Counted from the first letter of the stretch, positions 9,866 through 64,000 are shown. The stretch: 64,000 nucleotides of DNA from Nitrosopumilaceae archaeon (GCA_965203465.1 CBDBCR010000001.1:576001-640000); one strand, 5' to 3'. Notes: generated from the sequence alone by a model not told the origin. Translations and numbers: made by a program.

Positions 9866-9931
9866 CGCCCTTGGCACTATGAGGCGATTTTTTACCACTA
9901 GTTTAAATATAGGCGGCGCCCCACCACGCGC

Positions 9932-17763: not shown

Positions 17764-17835
17764 GGCCTTCGTCGTATAATGGCAGTATAGGGGATTGTGG
17801 CTCCCCGGACAGGGGTTCGATTCCCCTCGAAGGCC
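17764..17835 (+). tRNA. tRNA-His (GTG), intronless, genome-encoded G-1, no encoded CCA
   Basis: Acceptor GCCTTCG/CGAAGGC, anticodon arm GGGGA-TTGTGGC-TCCCC, T arm AGGGG-TTCGATT-CCCCT, C73. Confidence 0.95.
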
Positions 17836-17838
17836 TTT

Positions 17839-28832: not shown

Positions 28833-28862
28833 GGCGCGCGGCCGAGGGCCCCTGATTAAAGT

Positions 28863-28980
28863 GATGCCGGCACTGCTGCTTCCCAAGAGCTCTCGCATCT
28901 AAGTAGCACAACAGCGACGGCAGGTTTGACTTCCAAGTTCGGAACGGGATTGGGTCGCGCCCTGCCGCTATGGCCGGCTT
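28863..28980 (-). rRNA. rrf: 5S rRNA (stand-alone)
   Basis: Minus strand reads GCCGGCCAUAGCGGCAGGGCGCGACCCAAUCCCGUUCCGAACUUGGAAGUCAAACC...GUGCCGGC, with the conserved CCGAAC loop and terminal helix. Confidence 0.95.
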
Positions 28981-29068
28981 GAACCGGGGCCGGCCGGCCC
29001 CACCTATTAAGATATCGCGCCGGCGCGCCCCGCGAAGACGTTAAGAACTCCGGCTTTCCAGCTAGGCC

Positions 29069-49455: not shown

Positions 49456-52161
49456 TCACTTGGCCTTGCTTTTCTTCAGCGTCTCCAGCAGGCGGAATCC
49501 AGCATTGCGCTTGTTTTCGTCCGCGGACTCGGTCAGCGATTCTGCGTAGGACGCGATCTCGTCCGCGTGCTTTTGGTTTCCCATCTCTGCGGCTAGCATG
49601 TACGCGTCGTACTGATCCCTTCTCTCCAAGTTGCGCGCTTTTGTGACATACGCGTTCGAGATCGTAGCCATCAGGCCGGAGTCAAGCTCTTCGTAGCGTC
49701 CGTTCGCGTCATTCAGCCGCAGCCCGTATTTGAAGGCGCCTTTGGACGCGATGGCGTCGAAAAAGGCGGATCCGACGTGTTCTTTCAGGCTGTCGGGCGT
49801 GCGCGTGAGAAGGAACCACGTCAACCTCGGATTCATGTCTCCGTCTCTGAGCAATTCCAGCATCGAGTCGATCGCAGCCTTTGTCGTCAAGAATTGCCGA
49901 TACTTCGGATCGTCTAAAATCTCGAGCAGCTCGTACAGGAAGCCTGTCTGCTTGAACTCTTCAAACGCGTCGCTGGCCGTCTCGAGATACTCCGTGTCTT
50001 CGCCTTTTTTTCCAGCCAAGATCCTGAGGATCTCGGTGTTGTGCCTCTGATCGGAGCAGGACTGTAGCACTTTATGCAGCGCCCTGTCGATTTTCTTGTC
50101 CAAGTCGATCCTGCCGATCTGCTCCAGCAGACGGTGAGGAAGGGGCGCATTGGCGCCGGCACACTGCATCGCTAGATCGGCGATCCTGGAGCGGAGCGTT
50201 TCGGCCTCGTCTGGAGACATGGACCCGGCCAATTGGGCGCACAGTATGTCGTACCCGGCGCTCGGCGCGACGCCGAAGGTGGCCTCGGATATTATCTTCG
50301 AGACCAGGCCCGACATCCTGGCGCCCTCCCGGCGGTATTCCAGGCATTCCGCGACGAAAAATTCGTCCCACAAACCGGCCGCGTCGATCTTTTCGACCGC
50401 CATTTCGCCCATGCGCTCGGCCAAGCCTGCCCCGACTACGGCGCGGTTCTTGGAAAGCAGCTCTAGCGCGGCCAAGTCCGGCGGGTCGGCTAGGAACGCA
50501 TCGGACACGAGTCTTTCGCAGACAATGTCCCGCATGCGCGCCGGCATCAGGCCTACCTGCTCGGCCCCGATCCTTTCGACCATGCCGCGCGCGTTTCCGA
50601 GCAGCGGGCCCGCGACGTAGTGCCCGAGAGTGGCGGCCATTCTCGCGCGGACCGGAGAGTCGGGCGCCGCCTTTACCAGTTCTGCCAGCATCGCCACGTT
50701 GCCGCTCAGCGCGGGCATGCCGGGATCGGACTCCGAGGCCGATTCCCTCAGTATCTCGTCGATCCTGCCCATGTACGCCTCTTGAGCCCCCGCGTCCAGT
50801 TTTCCGAACATCCGGACCGCCTTTGGGTCCGAGCGGGAGAACGCGTCCTCGAACTCGCTTATGCCCGGCAGCGCCGCGTGCGGCGCCTGGCTCATCCGGA
50901 GGAACGGGACTATGTCCGCTCCGGGCATCTGCGTGGCGCCCAGGAACCTCAAAAGCCGCGAGCGCTCGGCCTCGGGCATCTTGGCCGCCTTTTCGCACCA
51001 CTCTTTCTGCTTGGCGCCGTCTTGGTACATGCCCGGATCCCCCTCCAGCGCCTTGCAGAATTCGGGCCACTCGTGCATGAGCACGACCGACTTGAGCAGC
51101 GAGTTGGTATCGCCCGTGACGAGGCCGCTTTGGAGCATGCCTGACTTTTCCCTGGATTCTGCCAGCCTGTACAGCGCCACGGCTATGTTGAGGAACTGGT
51201 TGATTTTCCTGGGGTTGTCGATCGCGCCGGACAGCAGTATCGTGAGGGCGAACTGGTCGAACTCCACGCTGCGCCTGCCGATCTGCTTCTTTGCGTAGGA
51301 CCTGAGGCTCTCGCCCAGAAACGACGGCACCCGGAGCGAGACCTGGAAGAACTTGCTCAGAAACTCGTTGCCGTCCCTGTCGGTGCTCGCCGCGCCCGTT
51401 CTCTTTAGGTGCGAGACGAGCGCCTCGTCGTCGCACGCGAGCACGTTGACGCAGCCGTCCTTCACCATGAACGTCTGGATCAGGCCCAGAATTTTCACGG
51501 CCACGGCGCTCTCGCACCTGTCCAGGTTGTCTATCACGACCACCAGTCTCTTGGGCCTGTGCTTGCCGACGATCCCGTCGTAGATCCTGCCGAACTGCCT
51601 CGGGGACGCGGTGGGCGGGATCGTCTTCCTCGCCGTGCTGAAAATCATCTTTGCCGACAGCGCCAGCAGGGTGAGGCACAGCGCCCCGATCACGGTCATG
51701 CCCGCCATGTCCGGATACAGAGCGAGGGCGGCAGCGAGGGCGGCCGCCGCGCCCGCGCCGCCGAACACGGTCCGCCGCCGGCCCCCCAGGCGGCGCAGCT
51801 CCGCGTGCTGGATCTGCCGCCGGTTGTACAGCATGTCGTCCAGCTCTTCCCGCTTGTACGGGGAGCCGGCCTGGGCATTGAGCTCCTCGAGCAGCCCCTG
51901 GGGCAGGGATTCGGGCGAGAGCCCCCACGCGTCCACCTCGGCGTACCCGAAGCCCTTGAGGTTCTCGTCGCTGCGTATCCTGTCGCGGAGCATGTGCGCT
52001 ATGGACGACTTGCCCACGCCCCATTTACCGAAAAGCCCGACGTTGAGCGGGGTCTCGGACTTTAGCAGGATGTCGGCCAAGGAATCGACGTAGTGCCGGT
52101 GCGCAAACTCGTCGCCGGCCCGGCCTTCCAGGGCGCTGTCTTTGAGGTAGTCTTGGCCCAC
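49456..52161 (-). CDS. KAP-family P-loop NTPase with two TM helices and a long helical C-terminus
   Basis: GLFGKWGVGKSS Walker A, DAW, TM pair, VVIDNLDRC Walker B, FLSKFFQV, NPRKI..F.N; GTG start at 52161. Confidence 0.9.
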   Translation of the reverse strand: MGQDYLKDSALEGRAGDEFAHRHYVDSLADILLKSETPLNVGLFGKWGVGKSSIAHMLRDRIRSDENLKGFGYAEVDAWGLSPESLPQGLLEELNAQAGSPYKREELDDMLYNRRQIQHAELRRLGGRRRTVFGGAGAAAALAAALALYPDMAGMTVIGALCLTLLALSAKMIFSTARKTIPPTASPRQFGRIYDGIVGKHRPKRLVVVIDNLDRCESAVAVKILGLIQTFMVKDGCVNVLACDDEALVSHLKRTGAASTDRDGNEFLSKFFQVSLRVPSFLGESLRSYAKKQIGRRSVEFDQFALTILLSGAIDNPRKINQFLNIAVALYRLAESREKSGMLQSGLVTGDTNSLLKSVVLMHEWPEFCKALEGDPGMYQDGAKQKEWCEKAAKMPEAERSRLLRFLGATQMPGADIVPFLRMSQAPHAALPGISEFEDAFSRSDPKAVRMFGKLDAGAQEAYMGRIDEILRESASESDPGMPALSGNVAMLAELVKAAPDSPVRARMAATLGHYVAGPLLGNARGMVERIGAEQVGLMPARMRDIVCERLVSDAFLADPPDLAALELLSKNRAVVGAGLAERMGEMAVEKIDAAGLWDEFFVAECLEYRREGARMSGLVSKIISEATFGVAPSAGYDILCAQLAGSMSPDEAETLRSRIADLAMQCAGANAPLPHRLLEQIGRIDLDKKIDRALHKVLQSCSDQRHNTEILRILAGKKGEDTEYLETASDAFEEFKQTGFLYELLEILDDPKYRQFLTTKAAIDSMLELLRDGDMNPRLTWFLLTRTPDSLKEHVGSAFFDAIASKGAFKYGLRLNDANGRYEELDSGLMATISNAYVTKARNLERRDQYDAYMLAAEMGNQKHADEIASYAESLTESADENKRNAGFRLLETLKKSKAK

Positions 52162-52221
52162 GCGGGGCGCGTACCGTTCCCCTATAAAAAATCGGGGGAT
52201 TCGGGGCCGCCGCGAGGGCTG

Positions 52222-52296
52222 GAAGCAATGCGCAATCGCCCAAACTCCCCGCATCCGCGCCTAGAAAACCCGGCCCCGCCAGTTTACGCGCGACTT
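52222..52296. mobile_element. MITE-like element, copy B (diverged)
   Basis: ATGCGCAATC...ATCCGCGCCTAGAAAA...GTTTACGC with the same spacing as copy A. Confidence 0.6.
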
Positions 52297-52885: not shown

Positions 52886-53546
52886 TTACGTACCCACTAG
52901 GCACGCGCGCGAGCCCGCCGCCCTGATCTGGGCGTATTCGGGGGCCGGCGGGACGCCCAGAATCTCGCCCAGCTTGCCCATGGTCGGGAGGCCAAGCTTC
53001 TCCTCGAAGCGGGTCATCAGGATGCCGAACCTCGCCCGGCCGCCGGCAGTCGAGCATTTCTGGCGCACGCTGCGCTGCCTGATCACGGACCTCATGACGC
53101 GCTCGCACGCGTTGCTGGTAGGATCCAGGCCCGGGTGCAGGATGAACGTGAAGAGCTGGTCTGCCGCGCGCTCCAGCTTGCCGCCGAACTTTCCGCGGCC
53201 CGCCTTCTTGTACTCGCCCGCCAGTTCCTTGGCGGCCGACGCCAGCATCGCGTGGTTTTCGCTAGCGCGGGTCTGCAAGCGCGCCGCCCGGATGCGTCAG
53301 CGACCTTGCCTCGTCGTAGAGGACGAGCAGCCTGAGGTGCAGTTCCACGTCCGCTTTTCCTTGGACCGCGATGTCTGCCCGGCATCCAGGAGGACGTGCG
53401 AAGTACTGCTGGCGCACCAAGATCACGTCGTAGACTACGTACCCGTCGGCCGTGCTGGCCGCCCTGATCCTGTACTCGAAGTGCTCCCCGAATGCCGCGC
53501 CGCCGCGCGACGACGCCGGGCGCACCGCGACCAGCGTGAGGGTCAC
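52886..53546 (-). pseudogene. IS66-family transposase remnant (frameshifted C-terminal half)
   Basis: VRPASSRG...ADGYVVY in one frame, then QLFTFILHPGLDPTSNACERVMR in another. Confidence 0.8.
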
Positions 53547-53928
53547 CAGCCCCCGCGCGCAGACCTGCCTGCGCTCGGCTCATCCGCCGCCGGATCGGGC
53601 GGGCAGGTCCTGGACGGCACGGCCCGCCGTGCGGGATCGGATCCGCGGGGTGCCGCGGCTTTTCTGGCGGCACGCTGCGCTCCTTCCCCTCGCCCCGGCC
53701 GGGCGACGACTGCCTCGAGCACCGAGGCCGAGAGGTTCGGGAAAGGCGTGATCGAAAAGGACGCGTAGTGGGCGGGCAAAAGGGTGCCGCGGCGGGCGCT
53801 TCCGAGGCGGCGGGGGGCGCAAGGCACCGTACTGGCGCGGCCCTTGCGCGCCGGGCCGGAGCGCGCCGTCGCGATCTTGCCCGGCGCGGAGCCCCCGCCT
53901 GCCCGGCCGCAAAAGCGCGCGGGCCGAT

Positions 53929-54477
53929 CTACGGAGCGCGCGCGCCCTCGGTTCCGGACACGAATTTGTCCCACACGTATCTGAACGAGGCGTTCTGTTT
54001 TTTGGCCTTCTCGACGTCGAACATTTCGAGTGTTTTCGCCATGAAATCCTTCCGCGACGGCCACCCTCCCCGCTCGAGCATCCTCTCGAAATTCTCCTTG
54101 GACACGGATTCCGTGTTCGTGTGGTAGGGGATTTGCAGGCGCGCGCACTCGTCAGTTCCCATGCCGGCGAGGCACCAGCTCTCGATTTCGGTTTTTACCA
54201 CCGCGATGTTGCCGTGGCGCGCGTTGGGGATCTTGCGCAGAGTCTCCTTTCTTTGTATGTAGCAGGTGCTCTGGTCAAAGTCCGCGAACACGATGTAATC
54301 GCGCTTGATCTTGTGCAGCGTTTCGACGAACTGCACCAGCGTTTCCTTGTCTTTGCTAGCGTACAGGCGGGTCTCGACGTTGTATCTTTTGGCGAGCTCG
54401 CCGCGCATCACAGAATCGAAGAATTTCTCGTCGTCGCGCCCCTCCAAGAACACGACCACGCTCGCGTCCATCACCAC
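53929..54477 (-). CDS. TOPRIM-like protein (DUF4435/DUF4276-like), partner of the ABC ATPase
   Basis: FLEGRDD, FADFD (DxD), EIESW acidic motifs; overlaps the ATPase stop. Confidence 0.75.
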   Translation of the reverse strand: MVMDASVVVFLEGRDDEKFFDSVMRGELAKRYNVETRLYASKDKETLVQFVETLHKIKRDYIVFADFDQSTCYIQRKETLRKIPNARHGNIAVVKTEIESWCLAGMGTDECARLQIPYHTNTESVSKENFERMLERGGWPSRKDFMAKTLEMFDVEKAKKQNASFRYVWDKFVSGTEGARAP

Positions 54478-55700
54478 TCCAGCATGTTCTGCATGTGCAT
54501 CTCGGCCAAGCCCACGCCGTTTTCCAGAAACTGCGCGATCTCTTTGTTCGCCGACGGGCGGCAGATCTCTGAAAACCCCCCGGGAACTTTTTTGATCGCG
54601 TACAGGCTCTCTGTTCCGGCATGGCGGACGATCTCCGAGCTGTGGGTTGTCATTATGATCTGCCGTTCTCGGGAGGCGTCCATTGCCATATCCACCGTCC
54701 TTGCCATCAGGGAGGGGTGCATGCTCTTCTCCGGCTCTTCTATAGCCACCACGGGCATGTCCCCGAAATACATGGACGCCACCACGACAGCCGCGCTGAC
54801 GATTCCGTCGGAGAGCGGAGGCGGGGGAAACTGCGCCTTTTCGGGGCGCCTGCCTGCCGCGGCGAGCGCGACGGACTTTGCAAAGTCCTCAGCACCCATC
54901 GATTTGACGGACGGCAGCATTTCGGACACCAGGGCGTGCAGTTTCTTTCTGGATTCGCCGTCGGCTAGCGTGCGCTTTAGCACCTGCACAAGGTCGGGAC
55001 CTCCGCCCTCTAGCTCCGGCGGCCCTTGGGGGATTCCGGCCGCTCTGGAAAAGTTGTACGCGCCTATGTTTTCAAAGCGAAGGAGCCACGGAAAAAAGTC
55101 CACCAAAAGACCGGATTCGACGAGCAGCTTGCCCTCTGCGTCCGACGCCGCGCAGCGCCCGAGCTCGCCTCCGAGGCGCCCACCAAGATCCGTCTCCAAG
55201 CGAAGCCTGCCGCCGCGCCGCGCCGCGTGGACGGTTCCCTCGCGGTCTGCGTTCGAGTACTCTGGGCGGTTGCATCCGGCGCCCGCGGGCCCTATCTGCG
55301 TGCGCTGTTCGCACACGTCAAAGGCCCAGGAATCTTCGATCAGCTCGGCCTTTTCGTCTCCCGCCCTGAACTCGAGGCGCCACTTCCCGCCCGTGCTGTA
55401 CACCTTGCGCCGGCCCGGTATGCGCGCGCGCGTTTTCGGCGCCTTTACTTCCAACTCGACCACCGTGCTTTTGCCAGCCAGTTTCGGGTTGCCGACGTAT
55501 TGTGGGCCCCCCTGCGCCGAGACGGCGCCGTCCAGCCCGCTCTTGCAAAGGTCGCGCAGAAACCCGAATATGCTCACAAGGTTCGACTTGCCGGAGGCGT
55601 TGGCCCCGACCACGACGTTGAGCCTTTCCAGTTCCAGATCCATGTCTGCAAAACTCTTGAAGTTTTGGACCTTGATCCGCTTCAGGAACAGTCCCTGCAT
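54471..55700 (-). CDS. AAA_21/AAA_15-type ABC ATPase
   Basis: NFKSF, GANASGKSN, LSDG signature, IEEPE, TTHS. Confidence 0.9.
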   Translation of the reverse strand: MQGLFLKRIKVQNFKSFADMDLELERLNVVVGANASGKSNLVSIFGFLRDLCKSGLDGAVSAQGGPQYVGNPKLAGKSTVVELEVKAPKTRARIPGRRKVYSTGGKWRLEFRAGDEKAELIEDSWAFDVCEQRTQIGPAGAGCNRPEYSNADREGTVHAARRGGRLRLETDLGGRLGGELGRCAASDAEGKLLVESGLLVDFFPWLLRFENIGAYNFSRAAGIPQGPPELEGGGPDLVQVLKRTLADGESRKKLHALVSEMLPSVKSMGAEDFAKSVALAAAGRRPEKAQFPPPPLSDGIVSAAVVVASMYFGDMPVVAIEEPEKSMHPSLMARTVDMAMDASRERQIIMTTHSSEIVRHAGTESLYAIKKVPGGFSEICRPSANKEIAQFLENGVGLAEMHMQNMLEW

Positions 55701-55829
55701 GCACCAGTCACCGGCCAACGCGTTAATAACCATTGCCGGCGCGCGGGATCTTCCGTGATCGGCTGCCCGGCCCCGGAATCTGCCGGAACCGGCCCGTACT
55801 TTAAATACACGGCGCGCCCGGAAGAAAGC

Positions 55830-56792
55830 GTGGAGACTCCGGCCGTGGCCCACGCGGACATACTCGCCTTCGCGGAAGAACACGTCAACCTTCCTAGGGA
55901 TTCCGCGCGCCGGTACCGGGAGCAGGTAAACGGCCTCAGAGAGAACCTCGCGCGGCACATCAAGGAGAACCCCGGCTTCGGGCTGGTCAAGATGCTGCAT
56001 TCGGGAAGCGTCGCCAAGGGGACCGCCCTGCGCACCATCAACGACCTCGACGTGGCCGTGTACGTGAAAAAAGAGCAGGCGCCGGTCGACGAGAAAAAAG
56101 TGGTCGGCTGGATGGAGGGGTGCCTCCGCGATGCGTACCCCAACAAGGATCGGGGCGACTTTGCCTGCCTGGACCACTGCGCAAGGATCAATTTCAGAGG
56201 AACCGGACTGGACGTGGACGTAGTCCCCGTCATTTACGAGGGGGGCGACGACGACCGGGGATACCTGGTGGACAAGTACACCGGCGAGAGGCTGCACACC
56301 AGCATCCCGCTCCACCTGGAATTCATGCGCAGGCGCAAGGGGAACGATCCGCATTTCGCGCAGGTCGCGCGCCTGGCCAAGTGGTGGGCAAAGCAGCGAA
56401 AAGACGAAAATCCCGGATTCAAGTGCAAGTCCTTCCTGCTGGAACTCCTGCTGGCCCACCTGTCGGACTTGGGGGCGAAGATGAACGACTATCCGCAGGC
56501 GCTCGAGACGCTGTTCAACTACGTGGTGCGCACCGGCCTCGAGGAGCGCGTGTCGTTCGACGACTACGATTCCGGCGCCCTTCCGGGCCCCACGGGGGCC
56601 GCCATCGAAGTACTGGATCCGGTCAACGCCGACAACAACGTCACCGGCGGGTATTCGGACGGCGACCGCGACGCGCTGGTGGGTGCCGCAGAAGAGGCGG
56701 CAGACGCCATACGCGAGGCCCTTTACGCCACCACCAAGGGGCGGGCGGTGGAGCGCTGGCAGGCCGTCCTGGGGGAGTCTTTCAGGGGGTAG
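55830..56792 (+). CDS. cdnC: CBASS CD-NTase, CdnC-like (type III)
   Basis: FAEEHVNLP, SGSVAKGTALR..NDLDVAVY, third Asp in DVDVVP, KSFLLEL, DPVN..NNV; resembles E. coli CdnC as recalled; TTTAAATA near 55800. Confidence 0.92.
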   Translation: METPAVAHADILAFAEEHVNLPRDSARRYREQVNGLRENLARHIKENPGFGLVKMLHSGSVAKGTALRTINDLDVAVYVKKEQAPVDEKKVVGWMEGCLRDAYPNKDRGDFACLDHCARINFRGTGLDVDVVPVIYEGGDDDRGYLVDKYTGERLHTSIPLHLEFMRRRKGNDPHFAQVARLAKWWAKQRKDENPGFKCKSFLLELLLAHLSDLGAKMNDYPQALETLFNYVVRTGLEERVSFDDYDSGALPGPTGAAIEVLDPVNADNNVTGGYSDGDRDALVGAAEEAADAIREALYATTKGRAVERWQAVLGESFRG

Positions 56793-56796
56793 TCTC

Positions 56797-57300
56797 ATGT
56801 CGACGCATTCCTTCACGACGAGCTCCGCGTTCACCAAGACCGCCTCGGCGTACATCGCCTCCAAGGTGTCGGCGGATCTCAGGGCCATGAGCGCGTACTA
56901 CGGGAGGCCCAGCGAATCCGAGATCGCGGACTACCAGGAAGAACTGAACGAACTCTTGCCTGGAGGCTACGTGTCGAGCGTGCAGTACGGGTTCAAGCGC
57001 AACGGCAAAAAGATAGTAGTCTTGGAATACGAACACAGGCCGTCGGGCCTGCGGGACGACAACTCCGGCCGCGTTTTTTCCAGGGCAGATGTCTCTGGCG
57101 CGGAGTGGTTTTCGTTCCTGACATACAGCGCAAAGTGGGACGCGCTGCACGACGGCGCCAAGAAGCAGATCCGACTGCGCCTTCCGTTCCAACGCTCCGA
57201 GGGACACGAACCGAGGGACGGCGACGGCTACTGGGCGGCCGACAAGAGCTACTCTGCGCAGGGCGCCGGCGCGCAGCGGAGGACGTTCCGCCCGCACTAG
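56797..57300 (+). CDS. cap7: Bacterial-type HORMA domain protein
   Basis: SKV.ADL..M..YYG.PS...I..Y.EEL..LL..GY...V.YGF pattern; lies between the CD-NTase and the AAA+ ATPase. Confidence 0.88.
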   Translation: MSTHSFTTSSAFTKTASAYIASKVSADLRAMSAYYGRPSESEIADYQEELNELLPGGYVSSVQYGFKRNGKKIVVLEYEHRPSGLRDDNSGRVFSRADVSGAEWFSFLTYSAKWDALHDGAKKQIRLRLPFQRSEGHEPRDGDGYWAADKSYSAQGAGAQRRTFRPH

Positions 57301-57309
57301 GTGTTGTGC

Positions 57310-58251
57310 ATGAGCTCGCAGGATCTGTTCGACTATGTCCGGGAAATGCCGGACGAAGACGCCGCCTGCCAGTTCGAGGCGCTCGTCGGGCTGGATCGCC
57401 TAAAGGATACGGTGCTGAAAGAGGCCCGCCTCGTAGTAGTTCCGGGGTCGCTGGAAGACTGGAGCAGGGAAAAGCACGGCTCCGTGCTGCCGTGCGTGGC
57501 GCAGTTCCGCCAGCGCTCTCCGCTGATGGTTTTTTACGGGGACGTGGGCACGGGCAAGACTACGCTGGCCGATAGCCTGGGGGACGCCGTCGCCCGCAAA
57601 GAGGGGATCTCCGTGACGCTCTTCCGCCTGAGCCTGATAGCCCGCGGGCAGGGGGCCGTGGGCCAGATGACCAGCCTGATATCGCAGGCCTTCGACGAGG
57701 TGGCACGAAAGGCCGGGCGCGGGGCCGGCCGGGACGGAAAGCCCTCGTCGGCGGTCGTGTTCGTGATCGACGAGGCAGACGCGCTGGCCGAATCCCGGGA
57801 CACCGAGCAGATGCACCACGAGGACCGCGCCGGCGTCAACGCGCTGATCCGGGGCATAGACCGCCTCGCCAAGGAGCGCCTGCCGGCCCTGGTGGTGCTG
57901 TGCACCAACCGGTACGAATCGCTCGATCCGGCGGTCCTGCGCCGCGCGGCCATCAGCCACGAGTTCAAGCGGCCCAACGACGAGCAGAGGGAGGCGCTGC
58001 TGCGCAGGGCCTTCGGCGACGTCTTCGGGACCGAAGAATACGAGCGGCTGGTCGGGCGGACCGGCCCCGGCGAGGCCGGATACGGGTATTCTTTTTCGGA
58101 CATAACGCAGCGCCTCGTGCCGAACATACTCTTGGAGGCGTTTCCGGACGGCCGCGTCGGTTTCGGCACCGCCTCGTCGGTGCTAGACAGAACCGGCCCG
58201 ACCCCGCCGTTCGGCCGCCGGGGGAGGGACGGGGCACGCCCACCGGCCTGA
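57310..58251 (+). CDS. cap6: TRIP13/Pch2-like AAA+ ATPase
   Basis: GDVGTGKT, RGQGAVGQMT, IDEADALA, QMHHEDRAGVNALIRGID, LDPAVLRRA. Confidence 0.9.
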   Translation: MSSQDLFDYVREMPDEDAACQFEALVGLDRLKDTVLKEARLVVVPGSLEDWSREKHGSVLPCVAQFRQRSPLMVFYGDVGTGKTTLADSLGDAVARKEGISVTLFRLSLIARGQGAVGQMTSLISQAFDEVARKAGRGAGRDGKPSSAVVFVIDEADALAESRDTEQMHHEDRAGVNALIRGIDRLAKERLPALVVLCTNRYESLDPAVLRRAAISHEFKRPNDEQREALLRRAFGDVFGTEEYERLVGRTGPGEAGYGYSFSDITQRLVPNILLEAFPDGRVGFGTASSVLDRTGPTPPFGRRGRDGARPPA

Positions 58252-59660
58252 GCGCCAGCGGCGCCCGGATCAGTGGCGACAACTACCAGCACCTGTTCGC
58301 CTGGCTCAAGGTGCTGGAGGCGAGATCTCAAGACATCGAAAGCGTCGGAATCGAAGATCCCGACGCGGAAAACGCGGACGACGTGACGGTGTACATGAAA
58401 GACGGGAGGCGGGAATGCTACCAAGCAAAGTATTCGAACGACGCGAGCCGGCCCGCGACGCTCGAATGGCTCACCGAATCCGAACCGGGCGGGCGGAGCA
58501 TGGTGCAGGGGTTTTACGAGCTGTGGAAGGGGGCAGAGATCAAGCCCCGGATAACACTGGCGACCAACCGGCCCCCGGGCGGCGATCCGCTGGCGGGGCT
58601 GGCAGACGGAGACGACGACACCGTCGCGCGCCGCCTAGAGCACGCAAAACCCGGATCCAAAGAAGGCCGCCTGTGCGCCAGTCTGGCCGGCCACCTCGGA
58701 GCGTCCACAGCCGACACCGTGGCGTTTCTTCGCGACGTCCGGTTTTATTTCAGATCAAGGGGGGAGCTGATCGGGCTGGTCAAGGAACGCATGGGCGCCG
58801 CGGGCCTCTGCAACGACGACGACGCGGTTGCCAGAGGCGTCGGCATTGTGCGGGACTGGACGACGGGGGGCAAAAGAAGAATCGCCAGGGCGCAGCTGCT
58901 CTCTGCCCTCGAGCCCCTAAAGCGCCCGCCCCGTTCTACGGCGTCGATCCTGGTCCAGATGCTCGACCGCGATCCGGAGCCGGCAAGCGCCACTATTTCG
59001 TTCGACTGGACGGATCTGTTTCCGGGCAGCGAGCCCAGGCGCGTGCCGTCGGATCCGGGTCTGTGGAACTCTGAATTCCTGCCGGCGTTCAGGCGGGCGG
59101 CGCGGACGCTGCGCTCGCGACACCACGCGCACGTGCTGGTGCGGGGGTACATGCGCCTGCCAACGTGGTTCGCGGTGGGCGCGGCGCTGGCCGAGGCCGC
59201 CTACTCTGAAGTCTCGTACCTCGAGGGGGAGGAGGAACGGTCGTCCGCGGGGGAGATATCCAGAGTAGACGTCGAGTGCTACGTGTCCGACCTGGGCCCC
59301 GGCCGGGACGTTGCGGTGGGCGTCGCGCTGGCATCGGATCCGTCGCCCGAAGCGGTGAAGTACATACGCGGCCAGATTCCGGGCGTCGGCAGATATGCCA
59401 GCGTCCGCCACCCCGGCGGGGCCAGCCGCCGGGCTATACGGGACGCGGCCGAAGCCGGGGGCTGGGCCCTCGGAGCGTGCGACTCGATCCGCCGCCTCTG
59501 CCAGAGCGGGCCGGAACGGGTGCACCTCTTCATGTCGGCGCCGCGCGGCGTGGCGCTGCTGCTGGGCCGCCTGTGGACCCGCATGCCTTGCACGCAGCTC
59601 TACGAGGATCTCGGACCGGGCAAGGGATACTGCCCTTCCTACCTGTTCCCTGCCTCCTAG
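58248..59660 (+). CDS. Cap4-like endonuclease-SAVED effector
   Basis: GARISGDNYQH, E...DDV...YQAK nuclease motifs; C-terminal VHLFMSAP..VALLLGRLW...QLYE SAVED pattern; only CTG 58248 is available as start. Confidence 0.85.
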   Translation: MSASGARISGDNYQHLFAWLKVLEARSQDIESVGIEDPDAENADDVTVYMKDGRRECYQAKYSNDASRPATLEWLTESEPGGRSMVQGFYELWKGAEIKPRITLATNRPPGGDPLAGLADGDDDTVARRLEHAKPGSKEGRLCASLAGHLGASTADTVAFLRDVRFYFRSRGELIGLVKERMGAAGLCNDDDAVARGVGIVRDWTTGGKRRIARAQLLSALEPLKRPPRSTASILVQMLDRDPEPASATISFDWTDLFPGSEPRRVPSDPGLWNSEFLPAFRRAARTLRSRHHAHVLVRGYMRLPTWFAVGAALAEAAYSEVSYLEGEEERSSAGEISRVDVECYVSDLGPGRDVAVGVALASDPSPEAVKYIRGQIPGVGRYASVRHPGGASRRAIRDAAEAGGWALGACDSIRRLCQSGPERVHLFMSAPRGVALLLGRLWTRMPCTQLYEDLGPGKGYCPSYLFPAS

Positions 59661-59678
59661 GGCCCGGCGCGCCCGCGC

Positions 59679-60284
59679 TCACCGCATCTTGGCGAACCGA
59701 ACCACGCGCATCGCGCCGCCCGACATCTCCTCGAGCGGCTTGGCGAACGCCGTAAAGTCGCCGTCGTTCGAGACCAGCGCGGCCTTGCCATCCAGTGAGC
59801 GCGCTATCGTGACCGCCTGCATCATTATGATCCTGTCCGTTTTCGCATCCTCGTAGAGGCGCCTGAGCGCGGGCTTTGGGCTGGCCTCGGCCGACTTTGC
59901 GCTTATCCTCCAGGCGCTGAACAGGCGGGCCTTTTTGGCCTTTAGCCACGCGCGCGCCTCGGCGGTGCCCGGCTCGTTGACGGCTGCCATGTGCATCCGC
60001 TCGATTCTGCGCAGCAGGCCGCCGTCCCTTCCTGGCTCTTGGTACATGTCGTATATCCAGTTCTTTTTGGCCCCCTTTACGCGGCCCATCCACGCGATGT
60101 CGTTCCTGCCCCTTCCCCTCTTGTTGGCCTTTTGGAGGCGCTTGAACTCTGTCTCGACGGCGCGCGGGACCACGAGCTTGCCGTCCAGCCGCCTCTCGAA
60201 CCAGGCCGGCCCCCTGCCGATCTCGTGGTACGATTTGAGCACGAGCACCACCGCGCTAGTCTCCATGATGGCCGTCCCGTCCAC
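59679..60284 (-). CDS. PIN-domain protein
   Basis: IMETS, VPRAVETEF, TDRII, LVSNDGDF acidic positions. Confidence 0.72.
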   Translation of the reverse strand: MDGTAIMETSAVVLVLKSYHEIGRGPAWFERRLDGKLVVPRAVETEFKRLQKANKRGRGRNDIAWMGRVKGAKKNWIYDMYQEPGRDGGLLRRIERMHMAAVNEPGTAEARAWLKAKKARLFSAWRISAKSAEASPKPALRRLYEDAKTDRIIMMQAVTIARSLDGKAALVSNDGDFTAFAKPLEEMSGGAMRVVRFAKMR

Positions 60285-60728
60285 CCGCGCGGCCCCGCGC
60301 GCTGCTATTCATAGGTTGCAGCCGCGCCCCGGCAGGGCGGCCCTGGCCGGATCCACAAACTCGGCCGTCGCGCCCGTGCCCCTCCGGTTGAGCTGCGGGC
60401 GCGCCGTGGGCAAACCCGCGCCTTGGGGCGGCTCGTAGGCGGCAGCCGGCGACTCCGCCTGTGCCAGGCCGGCGGCCCGCCATCTGGCAGGAGCGTGGCG
60501 GGATCCACGATGTGCCCGCGGCTCGGCGTCGATTCCCGGCAGTCGGCGCCAAGCTGCGCCCCGCGCCCGCAAGGGCGTCTCGGAAAGGACGGGCCGGCGG
60601 TGAACGATAGTCCGGAACGACGGGCGGATCGCGGGCAATATTGTACAGCTCGGCCTGCTAGGGCATTCTGCACGAACGTTGACGGCGTTGCAGGGGATGT
60701 TTAAGCAGTTCCCGTTCCGTGCCCCTGC

Positions 60729-60860
60729 ATGCCAAAATACCCCGGAAAGGCCGACAAGGCTGACTTGGACAACAATGCCCACCAGCTCAATCCGGAACAC
60801 TCCGCGTACAAGGGGCCGGCCCGGCCGCCGCCCCCAAAAAGCGCCAAGAAAGGCTCCTGA
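60729..60860 (+). CDS. Microprotein (43 aa) with DLDNNAHQLNP motif, not in ORF track
   Basis: TTTAAG at 60700-60705, ATG at 60729; MPKYPGKADKADLDNNAHQLNPEHSAYKGPARPPPPKSAKKGS. Confidence 0.7.
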   Translation: MPKYPGKADKADLDNNAHQLNPEHSAYKGPARPPPPKSAKKGS

Positions 60861-61898
60861 CCGGCTAGCGCCGCCCGGGGCGGGCCCCATCACGACGACC
60901 GTCTGAATCGCCGCATTCTGGCACATGCGGCTACTTGGGACGCGCCAGAGCGACGGGCATCTTGTCGCCCACGTACGGGCGAAGGCGCCGATCCCACGTT
61001 TCGAGCCGCCAGATCCGCCGCGCAGGAACCGGCGTCGCTTGGCAGGCGCGGAGCGCGCCGCCTGCGGGCGCACTATCCGCGCGGCGCCCTGGGCAAGAAC
61101 GGGACGGCGGCAAAAAAGGCGATCGCAGGCGGTGCGTCGGGCCGGACGGACGGGGCGCGCCGCGGATCGCCTGCGTTTTTGGATCCTGGAAGAGGTCGGT
61201 TTCGGGCGCAGAAAAGCGGCCCAAGCCCCAGCGGAAAGAGCGTCCGGTTGTCCAAGTACAGCGCAAAAAAAAAAACGCCGAGTGGTACGATCTTTGATCG
61301 TGCAAGCCAATCCTTGATGGGCCGTGGTCGTCTATCTAGCCAGCACTCTTGTACTGGTTATGATCGCGCCTGCCCGGCCGTGCGGATTCCCAAAGCCCTT
61401 CTATTCTTGATCTGTAACTACCCAGTACAATTCTGCTATCGTGCAGACTATGCCCAGTATTGCGATCGCTTTTTTCAACGATGTCATTGTGCAGATGTAC
61501 GTTTACTTGGCATTTAAACCCCCCGCTACGTCTCACCGGGTGCTTTGTACGGGCCGCGGATCTCGGCGATCGGGCGTTTTGTGGCTGTTCCGGAAGCGGT
61601 TCCGCGGCCCGGGCCCCCGCTCCGCGCCTCCGGCCGGCAGGTGCGCCCTCGGCCGGCCTTTCCTCGCCGGGCGCCCGACGTGGCGGATCGAGCTTTGAGG
61701 GGCGCGCGCTTTGGCAGCCGGCCGTGACCGACAAGCGCGGCGTCCGGGAAAAGCCGGCCCCGGGCCGCAAAAACCGGTCCGCGCGGCCCCCGCAGGCGCC
61801 GGGCCTCGGATGCGCCGGAATCCGCCGTTCTGGGGGATCCTGCGGCAGCCGTCCGGAACAATGGATATATGCGGCATTCGCGGGCACGCGCCGCCGAA

Positions 61899-62180
61899 AT
61901 GGCGAAGATCGAGATCAAGGCCGTGCACGCCTGCGACGTGGCGGAGATCTTGAGAAAGTACGGTCAGTACGACGCGTTCGTGGAGAACCGCATGGCGTGC
62001 TATGTCTGCGGCAAGACCGTCAACGAGGGCAACATGGCCGGCCTGCGGAGGTCCGGGAACGGGGTGGAATTCGCCTGCGGGGAGGCGGCATGCTACGGCG
62101 CCGTCCTGAAGAGCGTAGCGGGAAAACGGGCCGACGCGGCCGCCGGCCCGCGTCGCGCGCCCGGCGGCAGCTCGCCCTGA
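61899..62180 (+). CDS. Small putative zinc-binding protein
   Basis: KAVH..D, CYVC...CGEAAC; ATATAT near 61865 upstream. Confidence 0.72.
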   Translation: MAKIEIKAVHACDVAEILRKYGQYDAFVENRMACYVCGKTVNEGNMAGLRRSGNGVEFACGEAACYGAVLKSVAGKRADAAAGPRRAPGGSSP

Positions 62181-62420
62181 GTAGGCGGCCGGCCCGCGGG
62201 GAAGCCTTGCGCGGGCCGATCCCGGCGAGCGGCTCTTCCGCCGCAATCATTCTGTCGCGCCGGGCGAGTGCAATTCGCGTCTGCTAGGACGCCGGCCCAG
62301 ACCGGTCGCGGAGGCCGAACCGCCCTTCATCGCGCGCAGGATCGTGCACGGCGGGAGGGCGACGGCCGAGGGCCAGCGGACGGTTCGCGGACGCAAATCG
62401 CGACTCATCCGCCAAGCCCT

Positions 62421-62834
62421 CTACGCCCATACGTGTATCTGGTTGCCGATCTTGCCCCCCAGCCCGATTCGGCGTATGAGATTTTCCATGGCTTCCCTGT
62501 CTCCGCGGGGCACGATCACGTGCAGCGGGGCGGGAATCTTGGTGTCGGGCATAACAAGACACCCCCATGCGCGCAGCTGTCCTTCGGCGTGTTCGGTGTG
62601 GGGGCCGGACACGTCCGTCTCTGCCTCGCCGATATGGGTCACTCCCCGTTGATCTTTGCCCAGCAGATCGGGAAACTTGCCGTTTACGGCGTACGGTTTC
62701 GGAAGGCGGCTGTATTTTTCATCAAACAGTTGTGGCGTATCCTCTACATCGATGTGAGTCACCTCGACGCCCTTTTCCTTCTCAAGCGCCTTTGCAAGCG
62801 CGTTGATCAAACTCTGGTGCTTCTCAGACGCCAT
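62421..62834 (-). CDS. Small PD-(D/E)xK-like (restriction-fold) protein
   Basis: N-terminal SEKH helix, PDLLG...IGEAET, QL..W, LHVIVP. Confidence 0.6.
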   Translation of the reverse strand: MASEKHQSLINALAKALEKEKGVEVTHIDVEDTPQLFDEKYSRLPKPYAVNGKFPDLLGKDQRGVTHIGEAETDVSGPHTEHAEGQLRAWGCLVMPDTKIPAPLHVIVPRGDREAMENLIRRIGLGGKIGNQIHVWA

Positions 62835-62997
62835 GCCGCTTTACCCACATCGGCAGTTAAGCGTGTTCCGTCGGCAGCCACAGCGACGAGGCACGCGGGC
62901 AAGGACCAGGATTGGCAGCTGTACCGGGGCAAGAAGGAGCGGCGATCTAGGCCGGGCGCCGGCCTCGGTTCTGGAGCGGCGAGGCGCACGGCCGCGC

Positions 62998-63620
62998 CTA
63001 CGCGCGCTTCACCCCGAACTCTTTCATGACCTTCTGCACGACCTCTTCTGCCTCCCTTGGGACGTCGTCTCGTTCCAGATATGACAGGCGCCTTGCGAGC
63101 TCCGCCTTGGGGTACCGTCGCCCGGACCGCCTTTTCCACTCTTCCTGCAGGACGTTGACCGCGCCGCTGCTCCGCCTGCGCCTGTCCAGTTCCTCCGCGG
63201 ACAACCCGAACTCTATCCCGTGTTTTCTCGCCAGCTGCCTGCTGTATCTTGCCAGCATCGAGCTCGGAAACAAGTCCTCAAAGTCGCCGTCCAGAAAATG
63301 GCACTGGTTCGCGGCGAGTATGCCTTCCTCTACGAGTTTGTCAACGTGCTTGCGCGCCCTGCTGTCCTTGTCCAAAAGGACGAAGATCTTCTTTCCTGAC
63401 ATCTTCAGGTACCGGATCAGCGGCCCGAGGTGCTTTGCGTTGCCGCACCCCCCTATGTCGAGCGTCCAGGGGGCCATCGCTACCTCGTAGCCCAGGGTGC
63501 GGGCCAGCGCCGGTATCGCGGTGTCTTCGGACTTGCCCTCCGCGCAGCACAGGTAGTCGCTGTCAAGCACGTCCGAGTAGCTTGTCCCCATGCTGGATCT
63601 GATCAGGTTTTTTTCCGCGC
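62998..63620 (-). pseudogene. OLD-family TOPRIM C-terminal domain lacking its ATPase
   Basis: AEGKSE, IGG, LLDKD, DFED, late K.ELA; upstream sequence is antisense to other genes; possible ATG at 63591. Confidence 0.72.
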
Positions 63621-63850
63621 GCGAAATCCCCGAATCTGCGGACGATCCCTCGAATCCGGCCCGGCACATAGTGGACGACCGCCAGGGCAGGGCGTGGCCG
63701 TGCAGCCCGGGATTCCTGCAGTACCACCTGCTGTACCCAGAGGACAGCTGGCAGCCGATCAGGGGCGGCAGCAGCGGCGCGATAACGTGGATCGTGGATC
63801 GCGCCTGCAGCATGGTGGACAGGCGGAGCCTCTGGGGGCCGGCGGTTTGA
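63590..63850 (+). pseudogene. C-terminal remnant of an E2-like (CEHH-type) protein
   Basis: RAWPCSPGFLQYH....DSW..IRG...G.I.WIV resembles the C..G..EYH....DSW pattern; in-frame stop at 63578 prevents upstream extension. Confidence 0.5.
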
Positions 63851-64000
63851 AGATCCGCCGCGTGGACCTTCCGCGCAAGATCCTGCAGCAGACGTTCGAT
63901 TTTCTGGGGGAGCGGGGATCGCGCGGGCTCGAAGCACACGCCATGTGGGCGGGCGCGGTCTCGGAAGGGACGTTCGGCGTATCGGCCGCGATATTCCCGC
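63847..64000 (+). CDS. JAB/MPN-domain peptidase N-terminus (runs off window), not in ORF track
   Basis: TTGA overlap with the upstream stop; LKIRRVDLPRKILQQTFDFLGERGSRGLEAHAMWAGAVSEGTFGVSAAIFP with the E...WAG motif. Confidence 0.68.
   Translation, partial: MKIRRVDLPRKILQQTFDFLGERGSRGLEAHAMWAGAVSEGTFGVSAAIFP

Follow-up and report, generated by a model that had tools for sequence, protein, structure and literature searches.

The combination of a CdnC cyclase with a HORMA protein and a TRIP13 ATPase is a textbook assembly of the cyclic oligonucleotide-based antiphage signalling systems (CBASS), and the type III category used here reportedly follows the classification of Millman et al. 2020. 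A four-gene operon of this kind lies at positions 55830-59660 (+) of a 64,000-nucleotide (nt) stretch of DNA from a Nitrosopumilaceae archaeon (GCA_965203465.1 CBDBCR010000001.1:576001-640000); this whole stretch is called the window below, and all positions are counted along it. Taken together, the analyses indicate, with a probability of roughly 0.85, that the operon is a chromosomal type III CBASS, presumably directed against viruses, which was received from bacteria, has long resided in a defence island of its archaeal host, and has lost the AUG start codon of its effector gene.

The mode of action can be modelled on the Escherichia coli system, as it is set out in 10.1101/694695 and in a review (PMC10419184). 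By analogy, TRIP13 would hold the HORMA protein in an open, inactive state until a viral closure-motif peptide closes it; the closed HORMA protein would bind and activate CdnC, which would then synthesize a cyclic trinucleotide, most likely cyclic tri-AMP. This signal would be bound by the SAVED domain of the effector, and the Cap4-like effector would oligomerise and cut DNA indiscriminately, aborting the infection.

The four genes are tightly packed and co-oriented on the + strand. Mechanical lists of open reading frames (ORFs) are full of false frames because the G+C content of the window is so high (64-72% nearly everywhere, with a single 2-kb bin at 57%), and the genes were distinguished by family matches and codon-position G+C. 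The first gene, cdnC (55830-56792, +), starts with GTG and encodes a CD-NTase, the oligonucleotide cyclase of CBASS, of 320 aa, putatively of clade C (CdnC), recognised by family and structure matches and by its catalytic motifs. It is followed by a gene for a single HORMA-domain protein of the Cap7 type (bacHORMA_1; 56797-57300, +; ATG start, 167 aa), also identified by family and structure, and by a gene for a TRIP13/Pch2-like AAA+ ATPase of the Cap6 type (57301, or ATG 57310, to 58251, +; 316 or 313 aa), identified by family matches and Walker motifs. The last gene (58236-59660, +) encodes, by family and fold, a Cap4-like effector with a putative N-terminal PD-(D/E)xK-type nuclease and a C-terminal SAVED sensor, which is 470-474 aa long when read from CTG or ACG.

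All four proteins gave strong full-length family matches. CdnC matches the PADLOC model Cyclase PDLC00808 at 4e-113 and the NCBIfam CBASS_cyclase_a equivalog NF041116 with 366 bits (cut-off 200), and it aligns over its full length with CdnC of E. coli MS115-1 (PDB 6p80; 1.4e-85), its only strong relative in the PDB, the next CD-NTases following at 1e-8. The alignment to 6p80 contains the GS...DxD...D catalytic residues, and G59, S60, D72, D74, D128 and D130 are invariant. The HORMA protein matches bacHORMA_1 (PF18138) at 1.9e-42 (145 bits, cut-off 35.6), PADLOC PDLC00884 at 3.9e-52 and the E. coli MS115-1 HORMA protein (6p8v_H) at 7e-26. TRIP13, with the Walker A motif GDVGTGKT and the Walker B motif VFVIDEAD, matches PADLOC PDLC00914 at 2.6e-109 and the CBASS ATPases of E. 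coli (6p8v_A; 1.3e-82) and Rhizobiales (6pb3_A; 5e-81).

A CD-NTase with GS/DxD/D, a HORMA protein, a TRIP13 with Walker A and B motifs and an adjacent SAVED effector, by which a type III CBASS is recognised, were thus all found, and the family matches identify the operon as a type III CBASS whose effector is Cap4-like. The same system had been proposed in an earlier account made from the DNA alone (the sequence-only reading), and the full-length matches together with the Cap4 fold of the effector confirm it. That account had also described four contiguous intact ORFs behind a TATA-like box: the contiguity and the box were borne out, but "intact" is only partly right, because the effector gene has no canonical start codon, its ancestral ATG being an ACG at 58236.

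The effector matches the PADLOC models SAVED_PDDEXK PDLC02005 (2.6e-103) and PDLC00741 (5e-94), and its SAVED domain matches PF18145 at 6.7e-19 and NF033611 with 81 bits (cut-off 33). A phmmer search against the solved Cap4 proteins aligned only the SAVED part, at 1e-4 (7yia), and PF14130, a DUF4297-type nuclease family of Pfam, did not match the effector of the window. An AlphaFold2 model built on 48 sequences (predicted local distance difference test score 90.7) was aligned by Foldseek over its whole length with Cap4 of Enterobacter cloacae (7yib; E 7e-29, template modelling score 0.58), followed by Cap4 of Acinetobacter and Moraxella (6wam/6vm6 and 6vm5). The nuclease core residues E36, D44/D45 and Q59-x-K61 are conserved in the 48 sequences. 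According to the predicted structure, the effector therefore folds like Cap4 over its whole length, and, among the features of a Cap4 effector, a translatable full-length gene with a canonical start was not found.

The reason lies in the TRIP13-effector junction (58223-58251, +), which comprises GGAGG (58223-58227), ACG (58236-58238, 8 nt behind GGAGG), CTG (58248-58250) and the TRIP13 stop codon TGA (58249-58251), which CTG overlaps as CTGA. Three other Nitrosopumilaceae operons read cATGAcc here, with the ATG of the effector overlapping the stop codon of TRIP13, whereas the window reads cACGCcc at this site, and because of this change TRIP13 extends four codons beyond its ancestral stop, up to the TGA at 58249-58251. 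The effector frame contains no ATG, GTG or TTG between 57903 and 58310, and the public annotation (P0004) starts the protein at GTG 58311, with 449 aa and without helix 1. The 21 codons that are thereby discarded (58248-58310) have a G+C content by codon position of 0.57/0.48/0.95, encode most of nuclease helix 1, including the invariant residues G10 and H15, and have a mean identity of 72% to 47 homologues versus 44% for the remainder, which makes this segment the best-conserved part of the effector. The discarded segment thus behaves as coding sequence on which selection is still acting.

The loss of the start codon is not restricted to the window. TRIP13 proteins that are 71-93% identical to that of the window (P0122, P0123, P0138) have Arg at the ancestral stop position, and the C-termini of the relatives read ...ARPPG, ...ARQQG or ...PRPPG. 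The effector clusters listed at 63-89% identity (P0005-P0011, P0014, P0017, P0018) are all recorded as short proteins of 409-454 aa, and the nine that were fetched have N-termini starting MLEA.. or MKDGR...; relatives at no more than 58% identity are 471-490 aa long and start MTTGLS. At the same time, a contig from sequencing run X1 agrees with the window across the junction. These comparisons indicate that the lost start is common to the relatives and is neither a private lesion nor an assembly error, with the start codons of the closest effector relatives (P0005-P0011) being read solely from the TRIP13 C-termini. A scan of metagenome contigs with the effector of the window returned one irrelevant 1-kb locus and no DNA of close relatives. 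Because gene callers need a canonical start, automatic annotation loses nuclease helix 1 and sometimes also the first two strands, and at least ten public protein clusters of this effector are shortened in this way, which calls for caution in annotation.

Two other solutions for the N-terminus, a long extension from GTG 57900 and a fusion through an upstream frameshift, were rejected on the basis of codon-position G+C: over 57900-58235 the effector frame has values of 0.88/0.67/0.54, which fit the TRIP13 frame and not the effector frame. Inspection by eye revealed no canonical slippery heptamer near the end of TRIP13. Since the periodicity upstream of 58236 is that of TRIP13, translation of the effector most likely starts at ACG 58236 or CTG 58248, either by weak non-AUG initiation or by termination-reinitiation. 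A low level of effector is thus probably still produced, with initiation at a non-AUG codon that is coupled to the termination of TRIP13 translation.

The start of the operon may also have been remodelled. The sequence TTTAAATA at 55800-55807 (+) resembles an archaeal TATA box and begins 30 nt ahead of the cdnC GTG. In the 64 kb, the pattern TTTAWATA has two matches, compared with 0.19 expected, and both begin 30 nt before a start codon on the + strand. The other exact copy of TTTAAATA (9902-9909) precedes GTG 9932 of a 301-aa ORF without a Pfam match, suggesting that this might be a common leaderless promoter layout in the genome. The operons of Chloroflexota and two other archaeal ones have a Shine-Dalgarno sequence of the GGGAGG type directly before an ATG. 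The arrangement in the window thus suggests that TTTAAATA acts as an archaeal promoter for leaderless transcription, gained once the operon had been transferred.

The window represents 576-640 kb of a 1.03-Mb contig in a genome of 2.26 Mb (four contigs, 65% G+C). The 16S rRNA gene of the host scores 1442 bits with the archaeal model versus 1089 bits with the bacterial one, archaeal amoA (383 bits) and amoC are found 160-170 kb away on the same contig, and the first 44 kb of the window contain genes for class-I LysRS, DHQS-II, ELP3, RLI/ABCE1, PAC2 and a plastocyanin-like copper protein. The host can thus be identified from its gene content as an ammonia-oxidising archaeon, as the sequence-only reading had supposed. 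Among these archaeal core genes are a 5S rRNA gene (28862-28981, -; 76 bits) and a tRNA-His(GTG) gene (17764-17836, +), and these are the only two Rfam matches in the window.

The four genes of the operon have a G+C content at third codon positions (GC3) of 0.84, 0.84, 0.86 and 0.81, practically that of the host (median 0.854 of 574 long ORFs), whereas GC3 is 0.36-0.68 for their counterparts in the nearest relatives. This agreement makes a recent transfer or a misjoin from Chloroflexota unlikely, and, together with the archaeal-style promoter, indicates that the operon has stayed in the host long enough for its base composition to match. Sequencing runs also speak against a misjoin: Logan contigs of run X1, which is possibly the source sample of the window, cover 53195-64000 with 0 differences. 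A 10.5-kb contig of run X3, from a different study, spans 55359-60331 and differs from the window in 100 letters and by 12 gaps, while other X3 contigs cover the neighbours upstream of the operon. Related sequences were found in runs labelled as sponge and marine metagenomes.

The origin of the operon was analysed by a CdnC alignment scan of one genome per prokaryotic species, which yielded 257 relatives. The best 80 of the 257 loci were examined, and 76 of them are bacterial and four belong to Nitrosopumilaceae. Of the 81 loci examined, 11 have a Cap4-like effector of the window type, namely the window, three Caldilineaceae, two Dehalococcoidia, one Nitrospinae, one Planctomycetales and three Nitrosopumilaceae, and by identity the closest CdnC homologues (72%) are from Caldilineaceae genomes. 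A quick tree of TRIP13 contained 74 rows after the removal of seven loci whose coverage was below 75%, and a careful tree was built from concatenated CdnC, HORMA and TRIP13 (771 columns) for 28 chosen rows, that is the 18-row clade around the window and ten others. In the careful tree the window groups with the three other Nitrosopumilaceae operons (99/96); their sister group consists of four Chloroflexota (100/98; both together 100/100), and this joint clade nests first with Nitrospinota and Planctomycetota (100/99) and, further out, with Actinomycetota and others. The operon was thus, judged by this tree, acquired horizontally from bacteria, the source that the sequence-only reading had favoured, with Chloroflexota as the nearest bacterial relatives.

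A fifth Nitrosopumilaceae operon (G160) sits within a Dehalococcoidia clade (100/99), and because of this separate placement at least two acquisitions by archaea from bacteria have to be assumed. In G160 (L011 6469-9618) CdnC, HORMA and TRIP13 are followed by a 241-aa DUF6602 protein (1.8e-32), which replaces Cap4 and is presumably NucC-like. In another Nitrosopumilaceae genome (G171; L014 8484-11022) an insertion of about 1.6 kb, which encodes a DDE_Tnp_4 transposase (2.5e-21), interrupts the orthologous cdnC, and this CBASS is thereby inactivated by an insertion sequence (IS) element. There was no sign of a viral carrier: a scan of viral contigs with the CdnC alignment gave two loci, with 45% identity and outside the clade of the window.

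The distribution in archaea is patchy. CdnC was found in 0 of the 60 nearest relatives; of 401 genomes from the class, 5 contain bacHORMA_1, all of them Nitrosopumilaceae, and TRIP13 occurs in 5 of 401 genomes of the family. In a phylum-wide sample bacHORMA_1 was present in 2 of 401 genomes, and in 0 of the 344 outside Nitrosopumilaceae. The phosphoglucose isomerase (PGI) proteins of congeners of the host are only 48-54% identical, indicating that the host "genus" is deep. The PGI matches in two congeners (L105 G003 and L106 G002) each contain one in-frame TAG, which may reflect overrun past the gene end.

Two explanations would deny that a bacterial system has settled in an archaeon. That the operon stems from a bacterial contaminant or a chimeric contig might be suspected from the 72% identity to CdnC of Caldilineaceae, and chimerism was one of the refuting conditions named in the sequence-only reading. 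It is nevertheless most improbable, because the GC3 of the operon equals the median of the host while differing widely from the values in Chloroflexota operons, the 1.03-Mb contig carries amoA 160 kb away, archaeal core genes inside the window and a candidate ribosomal-protein cluster downstream, independent contigs bridge the operon and its neighbours, and three other Nitrosopumilaceae chromosomes harbour the same operon. Equally little credence can be given to the view that the HORMA-TRIP13 pair is an ancient archaeal module akin to the ancestor of the eukaryotic one, although the host is archaeal and both the composition and the promoter of the operon are fully adapted to it. In the tree the archaeal clade falls inside the bacteria with full support, the second archaeal operon has a bacterial sister group of its own, and the HORMA protein is confined to Nitrosopumilaceae in the phylum sample. 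Moreover, the best PDB relatives of TRIP13 are the E. coli and Rhizobiales CBASS ATPases, at 1e-82, with no eukaryotic TRIP13/PCH2 among the 54 PDB sequences matched at E<=1e-6, and published trees (PMC12988326) point to bacteria as the origin of archaeal CBASS. The earlier suggestion that the locus is relevant to how the eukaryotic HORMA-TRIP13 module arose is therefore unsupported, and the archaeal pair found here says nothing about that origin.

A more serious alternative, though still an unlikely one, is that the operon is a decaying remnant, in which the loss of the effector start has switched off the killing arm while the rest survives for the time being. The effector frame without a canonical start codon, the public gene call from GTG 58311 that lacks helix 1, and the split cdnC of G171, which demonstrates that inactivation does occur in Nitrosopumilaceae, would all agree with it. 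Yet the same start change is present in relatives whose TRIP13 is 71-93% identical and whose effector frames are still open at 63-89% identity, the segment before GTG 58311 combines a GC3 of 0.95 with the highest conservation in the protein, and the other genes of the operon and all catalytic motifs are intact. It should be noted that several observations weigh against the preferred view of a long-resident bacterial CBASS. The system could be crippled, because there is no canonical start from which a full-length effector could be made; leaderless mRNAs are poorly translated from GTG, as work with haloarchaea has indicated; and no RNA run containing the operon stretch was present among the sequencing runs searched. 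What CdnC makes and what the effector binds are deduced solely from about 50% identity to E. coli CdnC, and the direction of transfer is derived from nesting and the wide bacterial diversity, in a tree without an outgroup root. Lastly, four genomes of the same genus lack the operon, although, as noted above, these congeners are distant. A further-reaching and tentative version, which is possible but on balance doubtful, holds that the borrowed CBASS has been rewired, with leaderless transcription from a TATA box and an AUG-less effector that is made only by non-AUG initiation or re-initiation and is thus tied in dose to TRIP13. This version concerns a sub-lineage of high-GC ammonia-oxidising archaea seen in sponge and marine metagenomes. 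If it were true, the dose of the effector would be coupled to the translation of its own negative regulator, and a conserved, selected means would exist of holding an abortive-infection nuclease at a very low level.

The CBASS operon is part of a region of about 28 kb that is occupied by defence-type genes. Divergent from cdnC, and belonging to the same island but not to the CBASS, is a HEC-01/PARIS-like pair (53929-55700, -), composed of an AAA_15/AAA_21 ATPase (54471-55700, -; PADLOC HEC-01A, 1.7e-40) and a DUF4435-like partner of 182 aa (53929-54477, -; HEC-01B, 2e-8). The sequence TTAATAA (55723-55729) lies 23-29 nt before the ATG of the divergent ATPase. Farther away is the gene for a KAP-family P-loop NTPase of 932 aa (49456-52254, -; Pfam KAP_NTPase, 1e-27), which has weak QatA/PifA matches under the NCBIfam cut-off. 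On the other side, the island continues from 62998-64000 beyond the end of the window (L096 2998-11855, corresponding to G000:C1:638998-647855) with an OLD-TOPRIM-like gene, a ThiF/E1-like gene (BilD-like at 1e-12) and two SIR2 genes (PADLOC SIR2, 3e-21 and 2e-26). A run of small genes of high GC3 downstream of the island is a candidate ribosomal-protein cluster.

The novelty claimed in the sequence-only reading was overrated. That archaea gained CBASS through repeated transfer from bacteria is already stated in PMC12988326, which also describes Thermoproteota as defence-poor, and PADLOC already contains full-length models for this effector type. New are the host group, in which such an operon had apparently not been described, and the two oddities of the putative TATA-driven leaderless start and the lost effector AUG; no description of the present operon was found in the accessible parts of the literature on CBASS in ammonia-oxidizing archaea or Nitrosopumil*. 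The known defences of ammonia-oxidising archaea are mostly CRISPR-Cas and restriction systems, and the operon indicates that these organisms can also acquire and retain a complex bacterial signalling defence, including its control by HORMA and TRIP13. Chloroflexota as apparent donors and the occurrence in sponge and marine samples would fit a sharing of defence genes across domains within one habitat. In addition, the lost start codon offers a test case for non-AUG or coupled translation in archaea.

In comparison with known systems, the operon shares the order of the first three genes and a single HORMA protein of the bacHORMA_1 family with the type III CBASS of E. coli MS115-1 (6p80, 6p8v, 6u7b). 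It differs in that the E. coli effector is NucC while that of the window is a Cap4-like nuclease-SAVED protein, in its archaeal host, in its putative TATA-type promoter without a leader, and in the absence of a canonical effector start. By fold, the effector has the same two-domain architecture as Cap4 of Enterobacter cloacae, Acinetobacter baumannii and Moraxella osloensis, with which it aligns over 498-503 Foldseek columns at only 14-19% sequence identity. We take the solved Cap4 proteins to come from operons of the Cap2/Cap3 type and not from HORMA/TRIP13 ones. The closest counterparts are the operons of Caldilineaceae and Dehalococcoidia (L015-L017, L020) and of three Nitrosopumilaceae (L019, L023, L025), which contain the same four genes in the same order, with 63-72% identity to the window for CdnC, 56-61% for HORMA, 67-75% for TRIP13 and 45-55% for the effector. 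In contrast to the window, these operons have kept the ATGA overlap between TRIP13 and the effector, and they have GGGAGG before cdnC rather than a TATA box at -30.

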